Positions 3 to 39,761 of a stretch of 64,000 nt of DNA are shown in pieces. The stretch is from an uncultured Clostridium sp. (GTDB taxonomy: Bacteria; Bacillota_I; Bacilli_A; RF39; UBA660), in the NCBI GenBank assembly GCA_946402315.1, contig CAMIWC010000003.1:12879-76878 (forward strand), given 5' to 3'. The translations under genes and the position numbers were made by a program. Numbering within the stretch: position 1 is the stretch's first letter; each line of letters starts with the position of its first letter. A model generated the notes under the pieces. It did not search any database, had not been told where the DNA came from, and was given only the letters and a program-made list of their open reading frames with translations.

Positions 3-575
3 AAAAAGAATAATAAGAATCAATATACATATATATCAGGAGATATAGAAAATATAGTAGATGAGAATAATGTTGTAAAAAGAGATTTAGAAAAAATAGT
101 TTCAGAAGTTGCTACTAGACAAATAACTCAAGGAGCACCTTTTGATGTATATTTTGCTTCTCATCATGGATATAATAGCGCTAATACCGAAGGAGCATTA
201 GGACATGATAATGTAGATGGTACAATTAGCTTTAAAAATGTAATAGTACCTAACAATATTACTTATTTATGTGCATCAGTACCAAAAACAGGAGCAACAG
301 GAATAGCAAATATTTATAATAATCTTAGTAGAACTAATAAGAAAGAAGATAATGATATATATTTTTCTGGAGAAAGAGCTGTAATTGTATCGTATACAAA
401 ATCAGGAGTTAAAATTAATGGAGGTACAGTACTTAAGTGTAAAGGTAATAATAAAACAAATTCTTGTGCTACACCTGTAAGTGCAAGACAAACAGTCGTT
501 AATTTAGCTAAAGAAGTTCATCCAGAACAAAAGGATAAATGTCTTAAAAAGGAATCAATAATAGAAGATAAGTAA
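3..575 (+). CDS. C-terminal part of MBL-fold (ComEC/Rec2-like) hydrolase, 5' truncated by window edge
   Basis: Open frame from base 3 to TAA 573-575, read manually; contains DVYFASHHG, resembling the ComEC-type MBL 'xxHHG' motif. Confidence 0.55.
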   Translation, partial: KKNNKNQYTYISGDIENIVDENNVVKRDLEKIVSEVATRQITQGAPFDVYFASHHGYNSANTEGALGHDNVDGTISFKNVIVPNNITYLCASVPKTGATGIANIYNNLSRTNKKEDNDIYFSGERAVIVSYTKSGVKINGGTVLKCKGNNKTNSCATPVSARQTVVNLAKEVHPEQKDKCLKKESIIEDK

Positions 576-28526: not shown

Positions 28527-28580
28527 TACTTCTTTTTTTTGTATTCTATTATATACTTATTATAGTAGGAAGTGATATAT

Positions 28581-30449
28581 ATGGCAAAGTATAGACAATA
28601 TGGTGCTTATGAAGAAAGTAAAGCAACAAGACTTGAAGAAGAATTAGAAAAAGATGTAAATCGTATACAACATGAAATTTGGGATATTGATAGAAGAAGA
28701 AAAGCATATGGGAAGCCTGATTTAGATGCTTCTAGATTATTTCATCTTCAAGAAGAATTATTAGAAAAAACATTTTCTAGAATGGCCGAAAGCAGTAAAG
28801 CTAGAGTTGCAAATTTGAATCAAAATAAAACACTTTTTAATGGTTCTGAAAGAAGAAAAACAATAAATAGAATTACTGAATGTCAAAATGCAGCAGAAGC
28901 TGTTAGAACAGTTAGATCTAACTCTTTAGTTGAAGGTGATATAGATTATACTTCATTAATGAGAGATTCTAGACCAGTATTTGAATTAGAAGGATTTGTA
29001 GGTGCCTTAAAACAAAATCAAGCATTTAAAGATGATCCTGATATTCAAGCAGCAATTAGAGCAGCTGAACAATTAACAAGTGCTCATAGTACAGTACTTA
29101 ATACAAAAGAAACAAGCTTAGTTAACCAAGTAAAAGAAGCATTTGCAGTTATTGAAGCAGCACCTAAAGATACTACTCTTACTCAAGTAGTTCATGAATA
29201 TCATGAAGAAGTAAAGAAAGTTATTAATAAGAATGGTGTTCATGCACTAGAAAATAGTCAATCTAAATATTCTGATATGGCTGAAGGTAGAAAAAAACAT
29301 GATGGATTACATGCAGAAGAAAGTTTAAAAAGAGATATTGAATTTGCTTTTTCACAAGGGAATATGGACTTAGCTACTAGATTACAAAGTGGTACTAGAC
29401 TTGTATCTAAACAAGCGATATTAGATCAATTACATGAAATGGTTACAAGAGTATCAGATTTATTACCTGAAAAAGAAAGATATGGTAAAGAAGAATATGA
29501 TTTTACTCCTGTTCATGATAAGACTAAAGCTGCTTTAACTACATTAACTGAAGTAAGAGAAAAAATGCAAGCTACTATGGATCAAGTAGGTTATACTGAA
29601 GCTCATCAACAATTAGAAGCTGCAAGAACAAGATATAGTCAAGTTATGACATTAAGTCGATTATATGAAAGATTAGGACCAAATGTTGCTGGTTCAGTTA
29701 GAAAAGATATAGAAAATGATATAGATAATTATTTAAGCGGTTTAGGATTATCTGGTCCTGAACTAGATGTTATAAAAATGGAAGCACAAAATGTTGCAGA
29801 TGCTAAGAGAAATGCTGAAATGGCAGAAGCAGCTTCTAAAGCCGATGCTGCTCGTGTAAGAGAAGATAGACAAATAGCTCAAGCTAATCTTACAGGATTA
29901 TCAGAAGCAGATTTAGATGAAATAGCTAGAGATGTAACACGTTATGCTAATTCACAATTTACTGATGAAAGAGAAAGGAACGAATATATAAGACAAGAAA
30001 TAGCTAGGCGTGCTGAACATAAAGCTGGACTATTGTTTGATGAAGGTAGAAGAGAAATTGCTTCTCAAGAAGCAATAATTAGAGCTAATACAGAAAAACA
30101 ACAAGAACATCAATTTACAGATGATCAATTACAATTTGCTGCTGATAGATTGGTAGCTGATGGAATGATATCATCATTTGATCTTAGAGATTTATCTCAA
30201 GAAGAAATGGGAACTGTTATTGACTATGCTATTAAGTTAAAAGGTCTTGCTGGAAAATCTGATCAAGAGATAGCTGAAGCTATGGTAACAGATCCGTACG
30301 TTTCAAATGGAAGAATTGTATATAGAGAAGTAAATGCTGGTACAATTATGGCACAAAAACAAGTTAATGATATGCATGGATTACATGGCGATACTCTAGA
30401 AGCAGTATATGGACCATCTAAAGAAGAAACTCGCTCTTCTTCAAAATAA
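28581..30449 (+). CDS. Hypothetical large helical/coiled-coil protein
   Basis: 625-codon ORF, Ala/Glu/Gln-rich, no signal peptide or motif recognised. Confidence 0.7.
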   Translation: MAKYRQYGAYEESKATRLEEELEKDVNRIQHEIWDIDRRRKAYGKPDLDASRLFHLQEELLEKTFSRMAESSKARVANLNQNKTLFNGSERRKTINRITECQNAAEAVRTVRSNSLVEGDIDYTSLMRDSRPVFELEGFVGALKQNQAFKDDPDIQAAIRAAEQLTSAHSTVLNTKETSLVNQVKEAFAVIEAAPKDTTLTQVVHEYHEEVKKVINKNGVHALENSQSKYSDMAEGRKKHDGLHAEESLKRDIEFAFSQGNMDLATRLQSGTRLVSKQAILDQLHEMVTRVSDLLPEKERYGKEEYDFTPVHDKTKAALTTLTEVREKMQATMDQVGYTEAHQQLEAARTRYSQVMTLSRLYERLGPNVAGSVRKDIENDIDNYLSGLGLSGPELDVIKMEAQNVADAKRNAEMAEAASKADAARVREDRQIAQANLTGLSEADLDEIARDVTRYANSQFTDERERNEYIRQEIARRAEHKAGLLFDEGRREIASQEAIIRANTEKQQEHQFTDDQLQFAADRLVADGMISSFDLRDLSQEEMGTVIDYAIKLKGLAGKSDQEIAEAMVTDPYVSNGRIVYREVNAGTIMAQKQVNDMHGLHGDTLEAVYGPSKEETRSSSK

Positions 30450-30932: not shown

Positions 30933-31442
30933 ATGAAGTATATTAAAGAATATATCCCATATTTTATAATAATTATAGTTGTACTTTTAATTAAACAATT
31001 CGTTATTACTCCAGTTGTTGTAAGTGGAGATTCAATGCATTCAACATTACATGATAAAGATATAATGATATTAAACAGATTATATAAACCTAAAGATATT
31101 AAAAGATATGATATTATTGTTATAAGATATAAGAATAAAAATATAATTAAAAGAGTAATTGGTCTTCCGGGAGATATGGTTGAATGTGTAGATAATACCC
31201 TATATATAAATGGAAAAGCTATTAAAGAGGATTATCTCGATCCAGGAACAGTAACAGAAGACTTTTCTCTACAAGATTTATTTGATGTAGATGTTGTACC
31301 AGAAAATTCTTACTTTGTTTTAGGAGATAATAGAAGTGTATCCTTAGATAGTAGATCAATAGGTTTCATAGAAAGTAAAAATATTAAAGGTAAAGCTACT
31401 CTTACTATCTTTCCATTTGACAGAATTGGACTAAAAAAATAG
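30933..31442 (+). CDS. lepB: Signal peptidase I
   Basis: VSGDSMHSTL (Ser), IIKRVIGLPGD (Lys), GDNRSVSLDSR. Confidence 0.95.
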   Translation: MKYIKEYIPYFIIIIVVLLIKQFVITPVVVSGDSMHSTLHDKDIMILNRLYKPKDIKRYDIIVIRYKNKNIIKRVIGLPGDMVECVDNTLYINGKAIKEDYLDPGTVTEDFSLQDLFDVDVVPENSYFVLGDNRSVSLDSRSIGFIESKNIKGKATLTIFPFDRIGLKK

Positions 31443-31522
31443 ATGTAAATTTTACATCTTTTTTTATTGTATTCCTTGAATATAAATCTATAAAAAAGTA
31501 GAATTATACTAGAGGTGTATGT

Positions 31523-32923
31523 ATGAAAAAATTAAAATATTTATTTTTATTTCTAATGCTAATACCAATCAATGTATTTGCATTAGATAAAGAAGAAGTA
31601 AAAACAATGCTAGGAAATACAACAACTAGTACTTGTGAAGATTCAGAAGAAATAATAATTGCTGAGCCAGTAGTAGGAGAAACTCCTGCATCAACAGTAA
31701 AGTATATTTATAAAATTGGAGAACAAACAATAGAGAAAGAATATGACATTGTTTGGTATGAACATGAACATTCTCTTTATGAAATATTTTATATTTTAAA
31801 AGATTCTCCAGAAGGTACTTTAATGACAAGTGATAAATTTGAAAAAGATAAGTACTATGAATGGGACTTTACTGATGAAAGTTATGATCAATATGAAGAT
31901 GATTTAGATGCTTTACCAGAATCAAGTTGTGAAAAATATGAGCATTACTACAATGGTAATTCTATGATCCTAAAAACTCAAGATATCTTATTTAGAGCAA
32001 CAAAAGCTATTGAAAAGAATAATAAAGTAGAATTAACTGAAGCTTATTTAGTATTTGATTCTGATCCTAATTATTTGCTTGATAAAGAATTAATGCCTGA
32101 AACAAATGGATTAAAAATTAATATTGATTTTAGTTTTGTAAAAGTAAATGATATATCATTTTATCAAGTTAGATTAGTTAATGGTACTAATGAAGAATTA
32201 GAAATTGGTACTACAACACCAAAAACAAGTGATTATATTCAATATTTATATACGTTTGGTGATGATTCTAATATTGTAAAACCATATTCTAGTAAAGTAA
32301 TTTATATAATAGCTCAATATAAAAATGAAGTACCTGCAGATTTATTAGATGAAGGATATACTGAATCTAATGAAGTAGAATTAACTTTAGGAAGTGAAGC
32401 TACTCCAAATGCAGATAATCCTAAAACTGGTATTTCTACTGCAATTATCGTAATAGGTTTAACTGCTGCTGTAGTAATTGGAATTATAAGAATTGGAATT
32501 AAAAAGAAAGTTAAATACTTAGTATTAGTTCTTGGGTCATTATTTGTATTTGTTCCATTTACTGCTAATGCTTTAAAACAAGTTACTTTAACTATTGAAT
32601 CTAAAGTAGTTATTGAACAAATAAAAGAATTTAAACTTGATGATGAAATATATAGATTTGAAAAAGGAATGACATTCAAAGAATGGATGAATAGTAGTTA
32701 TAACGTAGATAATATTGAATTAGTAGATATGTTTGATTGTGACACTTATAAGGAAGAATATGTTGGTAAAAGACATTTTGAACCAATTCAAGGTGTAAGT
32801 ACTAGTGAACAAACTATCGATGTAGTTGTAATTGAAGAAAACAAAGAATATGAAACAGAACTAATTACTGCAAATACATGTTTTCCAGAAATTTCTTCTG
32901 AAGAGCATCTAGATTTAGAATAA
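31523..32923 (+). CDS. Secreted/surface protein with internal NPKTG sorting signal plus a second signal-like segment (paralog 1)
   Basis: Sec signal ending VFA; NPKTG at 32417 then TM, KKK, a second hydrophobic stretch ending TANA, and ~110 further residues. Confidence 0.75.
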   Translation: MKKLKYLFLFLMLIPINVFALDKEEVKTMLGNTTTSTCEDSEEIIIAEPVVGETPASTVKYIYKIGEQTIEKEYDIVWYEHEHSLYEIFYILKDSPEGTLMTSDKFEKDKYYEWDFTDESYDQYEDDLDALPESSCEKYEHYYNGNSMILKTQDILFRATKAIEKNNKVELTEAYLVFDSDPNYLLDKELMPETNGLKINIDFSFVKVNDISFYQVRLVNGTNEELEIGTTTPKTSDYIQYLYTFGDDSNIVKPYSSKVIYIIAQYKNEVPADLLDEGYTESNEVELTLGSEATPNADNPKTGISTAIIVIGLTAAVVIGIIRIGIKKKVKYLVLVLGSLFVFVPFTANALKQVTLTIESKVVIEQIKEFKLDDEIYRFEKGMTFKEWMNSSYNVDNIELVDMFDCDTYKEEYVGKRHFEPIQGVSTSEQTIDVVVIEENKEYETELITANTCFPEISSEEHLDLE

Positions 32924-33007
32924 CAAAGAGATGTAAAGATTTACATCTTTTTTTTGAACCTTGAAGATTAGTTTTAAAAAATGTACAATTATAATAGAGG
33001 TGTATGT

Positions 33008-34387
33008 ATGAAAAAAGTATTATTATTCTTATTAGTATTAATGTTTTTTCCAACTACAACGTTTGCCATAACTAGTCGTAAAGATTTTGGAAAGATAGAG
33101 TCAAAAAAGTCTTTACAAACTTGTAATCAATATATCAATTACTATTTTGATTATCCTATTGTAGGTGAAAATCCATCTGAAACTGTAAAAGCAGTCTATA
33201 AAACTTCTGAAAATGAAGGTACAATTAACATCAGAGTAGATTGGTATGAATATGATAGTTCTGCTTATGACGCATTAATGTTGGATTATTCTATTGATGG
33301 AACTAAACTTGAAGGTAAATTTAAAAAAGGAAAATATTATATTTGGGATTTTGCAGAAGATTTAACTGCTGAAGAAAGAGTTGAATTAAATTCAATAAAT
33401 AGAGAGTTTACTTGTAATCCTTCTACAATTATAAATGATGTTTCTCATAATAATTCTTCTGAATTAGATTGGGATATATTTAATTTTGTAACTCCAATTG
33501 AAAAAAATGACACTATTGAAATAACTGATGCTAGTGTTATTGACTATATGGATGATTATGACAAATTATATGATTCTATTGAAGATTTTATGTATGGTAC
33601 AATTGATGGATTAAATGTTAGTTTTAATCTTAAATTTGATAGAGTTGATACTTCATATACATATTTAATTACAATAAAAAATGGATATAATGAAGATGTA
33701 GAGATACATGTTGGAGAATTAGCAAATAAAAGTGATTATGTAGAATACGATTTTAGATTTGCTGATAGTAATAATATTGCTAAAGCATATTCAAATAAAT
33801 ACTTATATGTAACAGCTACTTATAAAATTGAAGTACCTGAAGAACAATTAGAAAATGGTTATACAGAATCTAATGAAATAGAATTAAAAGTAGGTACTGA
33901 TCCACTTCCAGATGATAAAGAAAACAATCCTAAGACTAATACATCTACAGCAATCATAATAGTTGCTTTATCTGTTGCGTTAATAATTGCAATTATTAGA
34001 ATTGGAGTTAAGAAAAAAATTAAATATTTTGTAATTGTTCTAGCATCTTTATTTATATTTGTTCCATTTACTGTAGATGCAGTTAAAAGTGCTACTTTAA
34101 AAGTAGTTACTAATGTAGAAATTACTTATGAAATGACTTCTATTAAAATAGATGATGAAACAATATATATTAGATCTGGTATGACATTAGATGAATTTAT
34201 ACATAGTGATTATAACGTTAATCATTACGTAGAATGTATTTCTTGTAGTGAAGTAACTAGTGAGTTGGTAGGCAAACAAGCACTATGTCCAATCTATGTA
34301 TCAATAAATAAAGGAAAAAATGATCCAATTATGGATGAAGGTAACTTTGAAGTAGTTACACTAGATTACTGTCAAGAAGTAAAATAG
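33008..34387 (+). CDS. Secreted/surface protein with internal NPKTN sorting signal plus a second signal-like segment (paralog 2)
   Basis: Same RBS context (AGAGGTGTATGT-ATG) as paralog 1; shared GYTESNE(V/I)EL, NPKT, RIG(I/V)KKK, FVPFT motifs. Confidence 0.75.
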   Translation: MKKVLLFLLVLMFFPTTTFAITSRKDFGKIESKKSLQTCNQYINYYFDYPIVGENPSETVKAVYKTSENEGTINIRVDWYEYDSSAYDALMLDYSIDGTKLEGKFKKGKYYIWDFAEDLTAEERVELNSINREFTCNPSTIINDVSHNNSSELDWDIFNFVTPIEKNDTIEITDASVIDYMDDYDKLYDSIEDFMYGTIDGLNVSFNLKFDRVDTSYTYLITIKNGYNEDVEIHVGELANKSDYVEYDFRFADSNNIAKAYSNKYLYVTATYKIEVPEEQLENGYTESNEIELKVGTDPLPDDKENNPKTNTSTAIIIVALSVALIIAIIRIGVKKKIKYFVIVLASLFIFVPFTVDAVKSATLKVVTNVEITYEMTSIKIDDETIYIRSGMTLDEFIHSDYNVNHYVECISCSEVTSELVGKQALCPIYVSINKGKNDPIMDEGNFEVVTLDYCQEVK

Positions 34388-34491
34388 AGGAAGAGTATTA
34401 AATACTCTTTTTTTATGTAAATATATTAAATATATACTTGATACTGATATTTATTAATAATAAAATATATATTGTAGGATAGGTGATATAA

Positions 34492-36752: not shown

Positions 36753-39700
36753 ATGAATAAAAAGAGAAATTTAATTATAATTATATTATTTATTCTTTTA
36801 ATTTTATTAATACCTATAATATTAATTACTATTATTAAGAATAATAATAATAAACTAAAAGAAAAAGAATTAGTAATAACTATTGAAAACGGAGAACTAC
36901 AACCTGAATTTAATCTAAATACATATAATTATGTGGTTTATACAAAGAATGACACCATTAAAATAATATGTAATATAGATATAGATGATTGTAATCAAGA
37001 TATTGATATAAATGAATTAGAAAGTTATAAAATTAAGTACAATAATAAGTATTATTATTTTGATTTTATTAAAGTAGAAGATGATATAGAGATTCCTACT
37101 ATAAAAATATTAGATGTAAAAGGTAATAGTACTAATTGGGTAAGAGAATTAACTTTAGAAGTACAAGTGTATAATCCTAATAATGAAGAATTATCTTATT
37201 CATTTGATAATGGTACTTCATGGTCTAATTCTAATAAAAAGAAGATTACTACTAATGGTATTTATACTATTTTAGTTAAAAGTACTAATATAGTAGATCA
37301 AACCGAAGTAGAAATAACTAAAATAGATAATACTGCTCCTATAGTTAGTATTAATCAAAAGAAAATTAATAATAATGAAATAACTTTAGAAGCAACTGCT
37401 CATGATGATTTATCAGGAATAGATACTTATACATGGAGTACTAAAGAAACTACTACAAGTATTAAAGTAACTAAGAATGGTAAATATACTCTTACTGTTA
37501 AGGATAAAGCTGGTAATGAAACTAAAAATGAAGTAAATGTAACTACAATTGGAACAAATACAAATCCAGAGACTACATTTAATGCTGTTTTTGATAGTAA
37601 TGATAATACTGGTAAACTAACTAATTTATCTTGTACTACTAAAACAGGTAGTTGTACTATAACTGCTCCTCAAATAACTAGAAATGGTTATATTGTCTTA
37701 GGATGGAGTACTAATCCTAATAGTAAAACTGCTGAATATAAAGTTAATGATAAGATTACTTTAAATAAGAATTCTATATTCTATGCTATTACGTATAAAA
37801 CTATTACTGTTACTTTTGATCGTAATGGTAATACTAGTCAAACTGATAATAATGTTACAACTACAAATATAATTACTAAGAAATGTAATATATATAATAA
37901 AGAAACAAAATGTACTATTAAAACTCCTAAAATAAATATGAATGGATTTACTATTTTAGGATATAGTACAGGAAGTACTACCTATAGTGATTACTGGAAA
38001 GAAAATACAGATGGATTTGTATATGATAATAAAAAGTACTATGCTCAAACATATAAAGAACCAAGAACAGTAAGTGTATTTTTCTATCGTAATGGTAATG
38101 AATCTTTAATAAATAGTGCCGGTAAAACTATAACTGATAAAGAATACAAAGAATCTTGTACTATTCCTAGTGCTAGAAATGGTTCTAATCAAAATGATTA
38201 TTGTTCAATTATAAGTCCAACTATTATAATGTCTGGAAATACTATATTAGGATATTCAAACTTTTCTAATGATACTACTATTACATGGGAACATAATACT
38301 AAAAAGAATATTAAAAATACTGGTTGGTATTATGCTCAAACATATAAAAAATATAATGCTACATTTGATAAGAATGGATCTACTAGTGTTGGAGCAACTG
38401 CCTTGAATTGTATATCATATAACAATAATAATGGATGTAATATTACAGCTCCTACTATTACAAGAAAAGGATTTACTATTAATGGATGGAGTACCAATAT
38501 GAATGCTTCAACTGGAGAGTATCTAGTAGGTAATATAATATTCTTAACAAAGAATAATAGTAAGTTCTATGCTATTACTAGTAAAGAAATAACTGTTACA
38601 TTTAATAAGAATGGAAATACTAATCAAATTGATGGTGGTAATACTTATACTAGTGATACTTATAATAAGAAATGTACTATTAGAAATATTGCAACATCTT
38701 GTAATATAACACCTCCGACAGCAAACACTAATAATTATGAATTCTTAGGATATACAACTGGATCTACTGTCTATAGTAATTTTTGGAAAACAGGAGCCAA
38801 ATCATTTACTCAAAATGCTACTTATTATGGACAAACTATTAAGACTGTAACTGTTACATTTGATAAGAATACTACATTTGATCATAATACTGTACCTAAA
38901 ACAAGCAGTGATTATCATTGGTCTAAAACTAATATAGCTGCTACTAAGTTAAGTTTCTATAATAGAACGTGCACAAGTAGAAATAATGTTGGATGTTATA
39001 TAGGTAAAGTACCAATTATTTATTCATCTGGAAACGAGGTTGTTGGTTGGTCATTTTCTTCAGATGGAGGAATAAGTTATATAGGTAAACTTCAATTCAA
39101 ACAAGATACTACTATTTATGCTAGAATCTATAACAGTCATAGTAAAGGAACATTTAATTGTTCTAATTGTAGTAATACTAATCCTAAAAAGATTGGTAAT
39201 ATGATTATTGAATATGATAATTCTATCAGTGGTTCTAAACAAAATAGTTATAATACTTATTTAGAGCATATGTATGCTAAAATGCCTCAAATGTTTAAAA
39301 CAACTGCTAAGATTAGAGTAGTATCAAGAGAATCATTTAATGATTGGTGGGGAGCTTATGGAGGTATTACAGGAGGATATTATGAATATCCAATAGTTGA
39401 TATTCCTGAATATGGTGAAAATCATTTTAGAGGTGCAATTGCTCACGAACTTGGCCATGCTTTAGATAGATATTATGGTGTTTTCTCTAGTAGTAGAAAA
39501 CGTATTAGTCAAGATCAAACATTAATAAATATGGCTGAGAAATGTAGAACCGATGTTAATGAATGTGGATATATTTGGGAACATGGAACTTCTGATAGTG
39601 AAATGAATGAATTTGTAGCTAATATGTTCCACGTTTATTTCTATAATATTGCTAATACAGAAGATCTATGGACACCATCAAATCCAGATAAGATGATTCT

Positions 39701-39761
39701 AAGTACTAAATTAAGAAATAAGATTATTAATTATTTAAATGAAGTGTCTGCATTTGAATAG
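36753..39761 (+). CDS. Large membrane-anchored extracellular protein: Ig-like domains, ~6 InlB B-repeat-like units, C-terminal HExxH metalloprotease
   Basis: N-terminal TM; repeats of T(V)TFDxNG...C...C.I..P.....G...LG(W/Y)S...YYA; AIAHELGH and downstream NEFVA. Confidence 0.8.
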   Translation: MNKKRNLIIIILFILLILLIPIILITIIKNNNNKLKEKELVITIENGELQPEFNLNTYNYVVYTKNDTIKIICNIDIDDCNQDIDINELESYKIKYNNKYYYFDFIKVEDDIEIPTIKILDVKGNSTNWVRELTLEVQVYNPNNEELSYSFDNGTSWSNSNKKKITTNGIYTILVKSTNIVDQTEVEITKIDNTAPIVSINQKKINNNEITLEATAHDDLSGIDTYTWSTKETTTSIKVTKNGKYTLTVKDKAGNETKNEVNVTTIGTNTNPETTFNAVFDSNDNTGKLTNLSCTTKTGSCTITAPQITRNGYIVLGWSTNPNSKTAEYKVNDKITLNKNSIFYAITYKTITVTFDRNGNTSQTDNNVTTTNIITKKCNIYNKETKCTIKTPKINMNGFTILGYSTGSTTYSDYWKENTDGFVYDNKKYYAQTYKEPRTVSVFFYRNGNESLINSAGKTITDKEYKESCTIPSARNGSNQNDYCSIISPTIIMSGNTILGYSNFSNDTTITWEHNTKKNIKNTGWYYAQTYKKYNATFDKNGSTSVGATALNCISYNNNNGCNITAPTITRKGFTINGWSTNMNASTGEYLVGNIIFLTKNNSKFYAITSKEITVTFNKNGNTNQIDGGNTYTSDTYNKKCTIRNIATSCNITPPTANTNNYEFLGYTTGSTVYSNFWKTGAKSFTQNATYYGQTIKTVTVTFDKNTTFDHNTVPKTSSDYHWSKTNIAATKLSFYNRTCTSRNNVGCYIGKVPIIYSSGNEVVGWSFSSDGGISYIGKLQFKQDTTIYARIYNSHSKGTFNCSNCSNTNPKKIGNMIIEYDNSISGSKQNSYNTYLEHMYAKMPQMFKTTAKIRVVSRESFNDWWGAYGGITGGYYEYPIVDIPEYGENHFRGAIAHELGHALDRYYGVFSSSRKRISQDQTLINMAEKCRTDVNECGYIWEHGTSDSEMNEFVANMFHVYFYNIANTEDLWTPSNPDKMILSTKLRNKIINYLNEVSAFE

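Follow-up and report, generated by a model that had tools for sequence, protein, structure and literature searches.

The tandem genes analyzed here, designated A and B, belong, judging from their sequences, to a large, as yet unnamed family of precursors of Gram-positive surface proteins, in which the wall anchor sits before the displayed domain and not behind it. Each ORF very probably contains both an internal sorting signal and a second, cleavable signal peptide, and is therefore likely to give rise to two polypeptides. From the observed anatomy of the proteins, its conservation and the presence of the relevant enzymes in the genome, we infer internal cuts, wall linkage and docking. It appears somewhat probable that signal peptidase I (SPase I) and a class B sortase together excise a membrane hairpin from the precursor, which would leave the N-terminal module linked to the cell wall and the C-terminal part (hereafter the cargo) docked on it, rather than released.

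The gene pair and its flanking signals

Within the window (the whole stretch of DNA that was analyzed, 64,000 nt), gene A corresponds to an ORF of the (+) strand located at positions 31523-32923 and encoding a protein of 466 aa. Gene B was originally called as the ORF 32981-34387. Its start was corrected to the ATG at position 33008, because the context tagaggtgtatgtATGAAAAAA is duplicated at positions 31510 and 32995; the database protein P0002 (459 aa) begins at the same Met. The products of A and B share 36% aa sequence identity over their full length (E=5e-77); the genes are tandem paralogs. The repeat is also visible at the DNA level, with a period of 1485-1512 nt. Its best-kept part (32408-32614 versus 33917-34123, 73% identity) coincides precisely with the sorting signal together with the second signal peptide and its following strand.

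A separate promoter-like site, ribosome-binding site and terminator accompany each of the two genes (Table 1). The hairpins found after lepB and after gene A are AT-rich (AGATGTAAA..TTTACATCT followed by a T-run), and both have folding z values below -4. The preliminary description of this region had proposed that the terminator and the ribosome-binding context were duplicated together with the genes, and both observations hold.

The gene located directly upstream of A, as noticed before, is lepB, which ends at position 31442 and encodes an SPase I, a candidate enzyme for both signal-peptide cuts. The genome contains two SPase I genes; the second, encoding a more distant homolog, is placed on contig C13, where it adjoins a class B sortase gene. 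A functional link between lepB and the pair was considered and rejected: the adjacency is retained only in a single other genome of the genus, at the orthologous locus, and the other members of the family lie elsewhere. The arrangement rplS-lepB is, moreover, a common housekeeping neighbourhood. No sortase gene adjoins A and B.

Table 1. Features of the lepB-A-B region. Positions are those of the window; a slash between residues marks a predicted cut.
Feature	Position	Strand	Remarks
lepB, signal peptidase I	30933..31442	+	Pfam Peptidase_S26 E=2.2e-46; TIGR02227 162 bits
Terminator hairpin and T-run after lepB	31441..31465	+	-7.0 kcal/mol, z = -4.9
Promoter-like site of gene A, TTGAAT-17-TAGAAT	31476..31504	+	counterpart at the corresponding location upstream of gene B
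Gene A, first signal peptide, aa 1-20, MKKLKYLFLFLMLIPINVFA/L (..INVFA/L)	31523..31582	+	conforms to the family (Pro -6, Ala -1)
Gene A, extra N-terminal domain, aa ~21-195	31583..32107	+	profile match starts only at residue 197
Gene A, Ig-like beta-sandwich module and short linker, aa ~196-298	32108..32416	+	profile match 197-391
Gene A, putative sortase motif NPKTG, aa 299-303	32417..32431	+	predicted cut T302/G303
Gene A, TM helix aa 304-326 and basic cluster KKKVK aa 327-331	32432..32515	+	
Gene A, h- and c-regions of predicted second signal peptide, aa 332-350, YLVLVLGSLFVFVPFTANA	32516..32572	+	predicted SPase I cut A350/L351
Gene A, conserved putative docking strand, aa 351-364, LKQVTLTIESKVVI	32573..32614	+	AF2 strand 352-364
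Gene A, C-terminal cargo, aa 365-466, with motif EKGMTFKEWMNSSYN, and stop codon	32615..32923	+	
Terminator hairpin and T-run after gene A	32925..32955	+	-10.8 kcal/mol, z = -4.4
Promoter-like site of gene B, TTGAAG-17-TACAAT	32961..32989	+	
Gene B, signal peptide aa 1-20, extra N-terminal domain and Ig-like module aa 21-306	33008..33925	+	
Gene B, cassette: NPKTN 307-311, TM 312-334, KKKIK 335-339, predicted second signal peptide YFVIVLASLFIFVPFTVDA 340-358	33926..34081	+	
Gene B, putative docking strand aa 359-372 VKSATLKVVTNVEI, cargo aa 373-459, stop codon	34082..34387	+	
Third terminator hairpin and T-run, after gene B	34385..34415	+	-11.9 kcal/mol, z = -3.8

Architecture of the proteins and predicted sorting signals

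Both proteins are composed of the same elements, arranged in the order: signal peptide, N-terminal domain, Ig-like module, NPKTG (A) or NPKTN (B), TM helix, KKK, second signal peptide, conserved beta strand and about 100 further aa. Thus, every element of the anatomy originally proposed for the pair (signal, domain, sortase motif, TM, KKK, second signal and second domain) is present in A as well as in B. The N-terminal Sec signal peptides were recognized by the pattern of the family (Pro at -6, Val at -3, Ala at -1); that of B reads MKKVLLFLLVLMFFPTTTFA/I. The extra N-terminal domain of A is, among the relatives retrieved, common only to B and to the ortholog from genome G007. In the AlphaFold2 model, most of its residues 40-135 and 160-190 have a pLDDT of about 85-93, and the strands of the Ig-like module (198-287) have a pLDDT of 87-95. 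Searches of Pfam and NCBIfam yielded no family for the N-terminal module or for the cargos of A and B. Weak matches to Wzy_C, GtrII, SosA and exosortase fall on the hydrophobic hairpin and were rejected as composition noise.

The sortase motif is directly followed by a hydrophobic segment of 23 aa and by the cluster KKKVK (A) or KKKIK (B), which appears to have two roles, ending the sorting signal and supplying the n-region for the signal peptide that comes next. The internal signal peptide of A consists of KKKVK, the h-region YLVLVLGSLFVFV and the sequence PFTANA/L, and in that of B KKIK and the h-region YFVIVLASLFIFV precede PFTVDA/V. In both cases the h-region comprises 12 residues, with Pro at -6, Ala or Val at -3 and Ala at -1. 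The hydrophobic stretch and the further domain described earlier were therefore found as reported, with 116 residues following the predicted second cut in A and 101 in B. The sorting signals are not located at the extreme C-terminus, since the chain continues beyond the final Lys of the basic cluster for 135 residues in A and 120 in B.

It is very probable, on sequence grounds, that the internal NPKTG/NPKTN-TM-KKK segment constitutes a true sortase signal. The genome encodes four sortase homologs, of which three, with scores of 163-197 bits, belong to class B (TIGR03064, cut-off 153.75 bits), and the fourth, partial at a contig end, is without class assignment. The ordinary C-terminal substrates of this genome terminate with NPETG, NPATG, NPKTG, NPDTG or NPNTA, followed by a TM segment and a basic tail; two of them adjoin a class B sortase. 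The motifs of A and B fit the NPxTG of these substrates, the fifth residue in B being N and not G. The view of the preliminary description that this is a sortase signal, and that the genome should contain a sortase, is consistent with these three class B enzymes and with the shared motif. The genome also carries a gene for a penicillin-binding protein (peptidoglycan transpeptidase), and therefore a wall to which proteins may be anchored exists. A and B gave no match to the LPXTG-anchor model TIGR01167 (cut-off 15.9 bits), which two relatives pass narrowly (P0006, 17.7 bits; P0011, 19.0 bits) and a third, P0008, approaches with 14.5 bits.

The segment following the basic cluster is very probably a cleavable signal peptide rather than a TM anchor. 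It has a basic n-region, a short h-region, a helix breaker and suitable residues at -3 and -1, as expected for SPase I signals, in which the h-region has about 7-15 residues, position -3 is small or aliphatic and position -1 is Ala. In the relatives compared, the internal site contains Ala at -1 in 133/133 proteins, Pro at -6 in 130/133 and V, I, A or T at -3 in 132/133. The N-terminal signal peptides of the same proteins display a matching pattern (Pro at -6 in 116/124, Val at -3 in 98/124, Ala at -1 in 124/124). When a matrix built from the N-terminal sites was applied, the internal site was the second-best in 84 of the 111 proteins and among the top four in 110. The earlier interpretation of the second hydrophobic stretch as a signal peptide is thus strengthened by its agreement with the proteins' own N-terminal sites at -6, -3 and -1.

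Family conservation, the putative docking strand and proposed processing

A profile search with the module identified 1109 protein clusters at E<=1e-3 (832 at E<=1e-10), whereas a word-index homolog search with A retrieved only A itself; the family is thus visible only by exhaustive profile search. The strict cassette pattern is present in 136 of the top 150 relatives, mostly in the form NP[KNE]TG. In this set, conservation of the motif residues N, P and T reaches 90% or more, and P345 and A350 of gene A correspond to nearly invariant columns. A search for the cassette elsewhere in this genome, as suggested in the preliminary description, found it in two further proteins, and it also occurs in other genomes of the genus. 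That it recurs in this genome, across the genus and in over 1000 clusters of the database shows that it is not due to chance. The predicted cut sites are separated by 44-50 residues (133 relatives), and the family medians are 22 aa for the first TM segment, 7 aa for the basic cluster and 12 aa for the h-region of the second segment. A contig scan with a 10-sequence alignment located the family at 6 named MAG loci; a contig scan of genomes with a 3-sequence alignment found nothing, and an alignment of 107 sequences contained no segment of sufficient conservation to serve as a query. The hosts are uncultured, low-GC bacteria with small genomes, originating from the rumen and gut. An in-frame TAA in the copy from genome G001 was considered as a case of recoding, and was read instead as a sign of a pseudogene or of erroneous sequencing.

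Within the C-terminal half, conservation is highest in the first 14 residues after the predicted second cut. They follow the alternating pattern x-I-x-[IV]-x-S-x-[VI]-x-I, conserved in 133 relatives, and are retained although the cargos behind them differ in length and domain content. In the AlphaFold2 model of P0003, a paralog from the same genome, this region forms a 13-residue strand (210-222) with a pLDDT of 98, and the cargo (residues 228-313) has a pLDDT below 50 and is without secondary structure. The sole strands long enough to pair with 210-222 are those of the N-terminal module (pLDDT 95-98), and therefore the cargo is probably kept on the anchored module by docking of this strand on the Ig-like sandwich, as far as can be judged from pLDDT and DSSP assignments for the uncleaved precursor modelled as a single chain. 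In the model of A itself (pTM 0.68 for the whole chain), strand 352-364 could equally belong to the sheet of the cargo. Fold searches of both models against the PDB produced weak, generic Ig-like (PapD/MSP/ASH) matches, one with E=6.5e-4 and the rest above 1e-3.

We also inspected the distribution of Cys residues. Cys at +3 of the mature N-terminal part (ETC) and Cys at +2 of the C-terminal part are both present in 90 proteins and both absent from 20, with 2 mixed cases. These counts are not statistically independent, because they reflect only 2-4 changes on the family tree, and the co-occurrence is not significant under phylogenetic control; Cys parity is ambiguous in the C-K-C subclass. A and B contain neither Cys. 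Mutual information between the docking strand and the N-terminal module mainly reflects the division of the family into subfamilies with and without Cys, and so cannot serve as contact evidence.

The preferred reading may be summarized as the following pathway. The Sec system would export the N-terminal part, and SPase I would remove the first signal peptide. The NPKTG-TM-KKK segment would then halt transfer, and the next hydrophobic segment, acting as an internal signal peptide, would re-start export, so that the C-terminal part would be placed outside the cell as well. At this stage, the two parts would be joined solely by a membrane hairpin of about 48 residues. A class B sortase would cut NPKT/G and couple the Ig-like N-terminal module to peptidoglycan, and SPase I would cut after PFTANA in A and after PFTVDA in B. 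The C-terminal part would then begin with the conserved amphipathic beta strand, which would insert, or remain inserted, at an edge of the Ig-like sandwich of the N-terminal module; in most relatives, a disulfide between the Cys residues of the two parts may be added. The predicted product is a two-chain complex composed of a wall-anchored stalk and a variable cargo, held by strand complementation and with the C-terminus of the cargo free. The excised hairpin would remain in the membrane.

The same three cuts would also take place if the C-terminal domain were released into the medium as a small secreted protein, in a 1:1 ratio to the anchored one. This was in essence the original proposal for the pair, of which the part concerning two polypeptides from one ORF appears likely and the part concerning separate release is not supported. 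The cassette evidence applies equally to release, and the cargos of A and B are indeed small (101-116 aa) and without a tethering Cys. However, the strand immediately after the cut is conserved across unrelated cargos and is modelled with high confidence, with possible partners only in the N-terminal module, a free secreted protein would gain nothing from fusion behind a sorting signal, and the counterpart region of streptococcal proteases serves wall localisation (PMC3518915). Release is therefore considered unlikely. Slightly less probable is a protein whose N-terminal part is anchored by sortase and whose second segment stays uncut, so that the C-terminal part is retained as a membrane protein via the hairpin or a signal anchor. 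Up to the last step the topology would be identical, internal signal peptides sometimes escape cleavage, and the second site of the Zmp proteases has been described merely as putative or proposed (PMC3518915). Against this stand the complete conservation of Ala at -1, the almost complete conservation of Pro at -6 and the 12-residue h-region, all of which are typical of cleaved signal peptides and for which an anchor has no need, and the fact that the site mirrors the N-terminal cleavage sites of the same proteins.

It is quite improbable that the cassette is left unprocessed, with A and B as two-pass membrane proteins exposing both domains outside and NPKTG as a structural remnant. The failure of A and B to reach any sorting-signal HMM, the unusual N in fifth position of the motif of B and the lack of an adjacent sortase gene would agree with such a state. 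The N, P and T of the motif are, however, conserved across 150 diverged relatives, and the motif is that of the ordinary C-terminal substrates of a genome possessing three class B sortases. Very improbable, in our estimation, is sortase-mediated splicing, in which SPase I would expose the N-terminus of the C-terminal part, a class B sortase would act next, and the Thr acyl-intermediate would be resolved by the N-terminal amine of the C-terminal part or by a nearby Lys; the halves would be re-joined covalently and the hairpin of ~48 residues excised outside the cell. Some sortases do use Lys amines of proteins, e.g. in pilus assembly, and Lys is present at +2 or +3 of the C-terminal part in 104/133 relatives, including A and B. 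Both ends of the hairpin would, in addition, be situated at the outer face of the membrane, with the adjoining strand modelled as paired with the N-terminal module. This Lys is nevertheless not universal, a spliced product would not be bound to the wall, which would remove the obvious benefit of the design, and published accounts of the precedent family place its members at the wall or attached to it (PMC3518915, PMC7695701). Finally, when a stop codon is lost, a sorting signal can readily become fused through its basic tail to the n-region of a signal peptide, and such a loss between two genes may be the origin of the family. The possibility that the arrangement stems from an error of assembly or reading frame, or from neighbouring genes fused recently by accident, is nonetheless negligible, as the frame is unbroken in both paralogs, in two more genes of the same genome, in further genomes of the genus and in over 1000 clusters of independently assembled sequences.

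Relationship to known anchoring systems

Sortase anchoring is usually taught as strictly C-terminal. To our knowledge, the sole described exception is the pneumococcal IgA1 protease group, which has been treated as a curiosity, and we know of no earlier description of a two-chain complex formed by hairpin excision as a general, portable N-terminal wall-anchoring module.

Compared by published descriptions only, the design comes nearest to the LPXTG anchor found at the N-terminal side of the streptococcal Zmp/IgA1 proteases, and the principle of an anchor ahead of the cargo is therefore not new (PMC3518915). The order of elements reported for these enzymes is: signal peptide, sortase motif, hydrophobic segment, second signal peptide with an SPase site, and functional domain (PMC3518915). 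According to the statement in PMC3518915 that cites Bender and Weiser 2006, the anchor region is required for wall localisation; the cut in IgA1 protease is placed 56 residues downstream of the motif where PMC9637739 refers to the same work. The A/B family shares the order of elements and the location of the anchor before the cargo with the streptococcal and Gemella M26 zinc metalloproteases (IgA1 protease/ZmpA, ZmpB, ZmpC and ZmpD), and in both groups the second cut is predicted or reported, on the strength of that secondary citation for IgA1 protease, about 50 residues past the motif. The two groups differ in several respects: (i) the Zmp proteins contain LPXTG and are associated with sortase A, whereas the A/B family contains NPxT[GN] and would depend on class B sortases, (ii) a conserved, folded Ig-like module of ~130 aa before the motif and a putative docking strand occur in the A/B family, neither of which figures in the published descriptions of Zmp, (iii) the A/B device is a portable module placed before many unrelated cargos, and (iv) the hosts are uncultured low-GC rumen and gut bacteria in one case, and streptococci and Gemella in the other.

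The motif segment of A and B resembles an NPxT[GN] C-terminal sorting signal (IsdC; TIGR01167-type anchor) in its pentapeptide, helix of ~22 residues and Lys-rich tail. Unlike such a signal, it is followed by the cargo-bearing part, which reaches 492 residues in relatives, and its basic tail would have a second role in export. A likeness to donor-strand complementation (chaperone-usher pilins; split Ig-like domains) may also be drawn, in principle only and from a predicted model, since a strand from outside would complete the Ig-like sandwich. In the A/B family, by contrast, both chains would come from one precursor by hairpin excision, and neither a chaperone nor an usher is involved.

The A/B family thus appears to use the logic of IgA1 protease as a portable module. 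If docking holds, it would explain how a Gram-positive surface protein can be fixed to the wall by its N-terminal side with the C-terminus left free. Such a pathway would represent a natural way of making a surface complex of two chains with two enzymes, and the module, at about 200 aa, would be a compact tag, possibly useful for surface display. The findings also carry a warning for annotation, as these proteins may be mislabelled as two-pass membrane proteins or wrongly split, and they offer a handle on the surface biology of uncultured rumen and gut bacteria with small genomes.

The cargos range in length from 53 to 492 aa across the family, and include DUF285, DUF6273, Cna_B, LRR_5 and Hint domains. 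The M26 peptidase domain (HEXXH), which is the cargo of the Zmp proteins, was not found by Pfam in A, B or 107 relatives. The cargo motif EKGMTFKEWMNSSYN is present in 26/150 members of the family. The same motif was also observed at the C-terminus of a type IV pilin-like protein encoded in a genome of the same genus.

Organization of the locus and anatomy of proteins A and B

The window is chromosomal DNA of low G+C content (about 27%), taken from a small genome of 0.96 Mb that is available as a draft of 15 contigs with 74% completeness. Genes A and B are located in the same orientation downstream of trmD, rplS and lepB. According to the preliminary description, each product contains a mid-protein cassette (sortase motif, transmembrane (TM) segment, basic cluster and second signal peptide), and the pair follows lepB with duplicated terminators and RBS context; the sequence bears this out in every detail. 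AT-rich hairpins with T-runs are present after lepB, A and B (-7.0, -10.8 and -11.9 kcal/mol, respectively; z from -3.8 to -4.9). The start of B was corrected, because the context tagaggtgtatgtATGAAAAAA recurs before both genes; the same ATG encodes the first Met of P0002, the database copy of B (459 aa).

A and B share 36% aa sequence identity over their full length, and the duplication can be traced at the DNA level with a period of 1485-1512 nt. Its best-kept block (32408-32614 versus 33917-34123, 73%) precisely spans the sorting signal together with the second signal peptide and the next strand. Protein B is collinear with A, with NPKTN, KKKIK, PFTVDA and VKSATLKVVTNVEI at the corresponding positions. 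Searches of both proteins against Pfam and NCBIfam gave no match beyond composition noise over the hydrophobic hairpin.

Features of genes A and B and of two further cassette proteins of the source genome (nucleotide positions in the window unless a contig is named; a slash marks a predicted cut)
Feature	Position	Strand	Details
Promoter-like site of A	31476-31504	+	
Gene A	31523-32923	+	ORF, 466 aa
A signal peptide	aa 1-20		
A extra domain	aa about 21-195		
A Ig-like module	aa about 196-293		
A sortase motif	aa 299-303		NPKTG
A hydrophobic helix	aa 304-326		
A basic cluster	aa 327-331		KKKVK
A second signal peptide	aa 332-350		YLVLVLGSLFVFV-PFTANA
A strand after second cut	aa 351-364		LKQVTLTIESKVVI
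A remainder	after aa 364		102 residues
Promoter-like site of B	32961-32989	+	
Gene B	32981-34387	+	ORF; start corrected to ATG 33008
Cassette protein	C1:34478-36124		NPETG..KKKYNR..PISINA/ICKCDITIESKV; cargo about 320 aa
Cassette protein	C6:2-3277		NPNTN..KRRSV..PFIVKA/IDPSITITYT; cargo about 880 aa; gene interrupted by contig start

Two other ORFs of the region deserve mention. A strongly charged 625-aa ORF (28572-30449, + strand), without a Pfam match, lies between the gene following trmD and rplS. It looks like an insertion specific to the source genome, because rplS comes immediately after the homolog of the 161-aa ORF in the syntenic locus (L006) of G007, which belongs to the same genus. 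The product of the second (36753-39761, + strand) is 1002 aa long. It has a TM anchor at its N-terminus, contains Listeria-Bacteroides repeats (Flg_new, E=1e-8) and bears, in its C-terminal part, a HELGH motif that is possibly a zinc metalloprotease site.

Candidate processing enzymes and distribution of the cassette

A search of the source genome for sortases yielded four homologs: three are of class B (163-197 bits versus the TIGR03064 cut-off of 153.75) and the fourth is interrupted by a contig end. The ordinary surface proteins of this genome carry a C-terminal NPETG, NPATG, NPKTG, NPDTG or NPNTA followed by a TM helix and a basic tail, and two such substrates adjoin a class B sortase. A cell wall exists, judging from the penicillin-binding transpeptidase encoded in the genome. 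Signal peptidase I (SPase I) is encoded twice, by the lepB that adjoins A and by a distant gene on contig C13, where a class B sortase is its neighbour. From its gene content, a sortase reading of the cassette thus appears possible in the source organism.

At C13:6500-9021, the distant SPase I homolog (E=6e-12 to the window LepB) is encoded directly upstream of the sortase, which has a long, Lys-rich, TM-containing C-terminal extension. A nearby gene (C13:3441-5234) specifies a substrate ending with APATG, and the three may form a dedicated processing cluster.

The search for other cassette proteins in this genome added two, on contigs C1 and C6; the cargo of the latter contains repeats which, judged by eye, are similar to those of the 1002-aa protein. 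Further copies with other cargos occur in genomes of the same genus, one being an ortholog at the same lepB locus. A word-index search for homologs found no relatives, and an exhaustive profile search retrieved 1109 clusters at E<=1e-3, of which 832 reached 1e-10 and 146 reached 1e-30. None of ten sampled clusters was named; their members came chiefly from assemblies of ENA, JGI and Logan, two copies being from NCBI. Where a member lies in a named record, that record is a MAG from rumen or gut that bears the label uncultured Erysipelotrichaceae, Tenericutes, Bacillales or Clostridium. Carriers are scattered patchily over the taxonomic family of the window (9 of 301 genomes; 6 of 214 genera), with one to six matches apiece.

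In G007, two near-identical cassette proteins (NPTTG..KNRQTKY..PTVNA/LKEITITMNTK) are encoded at contig starts (L014, C14:1-1785; L015, C2:1-1779). One gene adjoins that of a GspE/PilB-type ATPase and the other a pilin-like gene (GFTLIELLAV), which hints at an element repeated close to genes for type IV pili or competence. In a cassette gene of another genome of the genus (L007 1348-1992, G001:C9), an in-frame TAA falls within the Ig-like module, beyond which the frame is open through NPDTG, a TM helix, SSSKK and LPLGVSA/AKQISVSI to the contig end; this is a pseudogene or a sequencing error.

Conserved unit of the family

Family statistics were obtained from the best 150 of the 1109 members. 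The strict cassette pattern is present in 136 of these 150, most commonly with NPKTG (41), NPNTG (34) or NPETG (7), and the nearly invariant alignment columns are N, P and T of the motif, Pro at -6 and Ala at -1. The first hydrophobic segment has a median length of 22 residues; the second has an h-region of 12 residues (median), then Pro. At the second site, Pro -6 (130/133), V/I/A/T -3 (132/133) and Ala -1 (133/133) recall the signal peptides at the N-termini of these proteins (Pro -6, 116/124; Val -3, 98/124; Ala -1, 124/124). When whole proteins were scored with a weight matrix built from N-terminal sites only, the internal site came second in 84 of 111 and was among the four best in 110. 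Since these c-region features are unneeded for a membrane anchor, the second segment is read, from sequence, as a putative cleaved internal signal peptide. The predicted sites place the second cut 44-50 residues (median 48) after T/G.

The 14 residues following this cut are conserved (consensus L-C-K-C-E-I-K-I-E-S-N-V-x-I; in the Cys-less subclass, which includes A and B, L-K-x-[LIV]-T-[LI]-x-[IV]-x-[ST]-x-V-x-I). The cargo past the strand varies freely, from 53 to 492 aa (median 191, best 150 of 1109). Most cargos of the 107 members scanned have no Pfam family; the matches were to DUF285 (11), DUF6273 (3), Cna_B (2), a BspA-type LRR (1) and Hint/intein (1). The conserved strand and variable cargo thus indicate, at the sequence level, a unit composed of the Ig-like N-module, the cassette and the strand, with interchangeable cargo.

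A motif, EGMTW.E[WY].NS.YN, occurs just behind the strand in A (32615-32720), B and 26 of the 150 best members. A type IV pilin-like protein (MKNKKGFTLIELLAV...) from a genome of the same genus (L009 793-1767, G005:C1) has a small C-terminal domain with the motif YEDGMTLTQWINSSYNTDNF; because the motif is the same, one small module may be displayed on sortase-anchored stalks and pilin-like proteins alike.

In the AlphaFold2 model of P0003, a paralog from the source genome, the N-module (residues 25-150) has a pLDDT of 95-98 and the strand (210-222) of 98; the two hairpin helices reach about 67, and residues 228-313 fall below 50, without secondary structure. DSSP marks the 13-residue strand as paired. 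Because a paired strand needs a partner, and only the N-module has strands long enough, we infer from the model that the post-cut strand docks on the Ig-like sandwich or belongs to it. Our likeliest guess is that it pairs with the last strand of the N-module, in which case the membrane hairpin would be inserted into the turn of a beta-hairpin. For A, the model reaches a mean pLDDT of 73.9 and a pTM of 0.68, with strands 352-380 at 82-88. Fold searches gave weak, generic Ig-like matches (PapD/MSP/ASH).

Most members carry one Cys in the mature N-part, at +3 (A/ETCD), and a Cys at +2, often with another at +4, in the C-part, i.e. the strand with its cargo. The two sites both hold Cys in 90 proteins and both lack it in 20, with 2 mixed cases; A and B have no Cys at either. 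The pattern fits, weakly, an interchain disulfide between the two parts. The co-occurrence is not independent evidence, because it requires only 2-4 changes on the module tree; mutual information between strand and N-module is confounded likewise, and Cys parity is ambiguous in the C-K-C subclass. In those proteins of this subclass that have a single N-part Cys (among P0005-P0150; not A or B), the Cys outside the cargo are odd in number, the cargo count being even in 38 of 47. One Cys is thus without an obvious partner; it might remain a free thiol, bind a metal or connect the protein to another partner.

Proposed processing and comparison with streptococcal proteases

The sequences directly show how the proteins are built, that this anatomy is conserved and that the enzymes are encoded; from this we infer the two internal cuts, the attachment to the wall and the docking, as follows. 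Sec export and the first SPase cut would come first; the sorting signal would then stop transfer and the internal signal peptide would re-initiate export. Sortase B would cut NPKT/G and join the N-module to the wall, and SPase I would cut after A350 (A) or A358 (B), leaving behind a membrane hairpin of about 48 residues. The cargo would be held on the anchored module via its N-terminal strand and, in most relatives, by a disulfide as well. The outcome would be a protein anchored by its N-terminal side with a free C-terminus.

Free release of the C-part, as proposed in the preliminary description, shares these cuts and differs in the fate of the C-part, whose strand is predicted here to be paired; we consider it improbable. 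Slightly less probable still is an uncleaved second segment, by which the C-part would stay membrane-bound in spite of the c-region features. That the cassette undergoes no processing at all, in a genome encoding three class B sortases, is quite unlikely, and re-ligation by the sortase onto the precursor's own cargo even more so. An artefact, given the number of clusters retrieved, is hardly conceivable. The docked, wall-anchored arrangement is the reading we favour, with moderate confidence.

The principle of an N-terminal or internal sortase anchor is already known from the literature on the streptococcal M26 zinc metalloproteases (Zmps), which include IgA1 protease and carry an N-terminal LPXTG anchor. 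All four Zmps contain the motif and two predicted TM segments (PMC3518915, own sequence analysis). A passage of the same paper, citing Bender and Weiser 2006, gives the atypical motif location as required for wall localisation, and a passage of PMC9637739, citing the same work, has IgA1 protease cleaved 56 residues downstream of the motif. Full-text literature searches for internal or N-terminal sortase signals returned no description of the present family, which lies outside the M26 family because Pfam detects no peptidase domain of that type in A, B or the 107 members scanned. Compared by published descriptions, the A/B family would work like the Zmp anchor, but it differs in sortase class and motif, in the folded Ig-like module before the motif, in the conserved, predicted docking strand after the second cut, in the use of the module with many cargos, and in its hosts.
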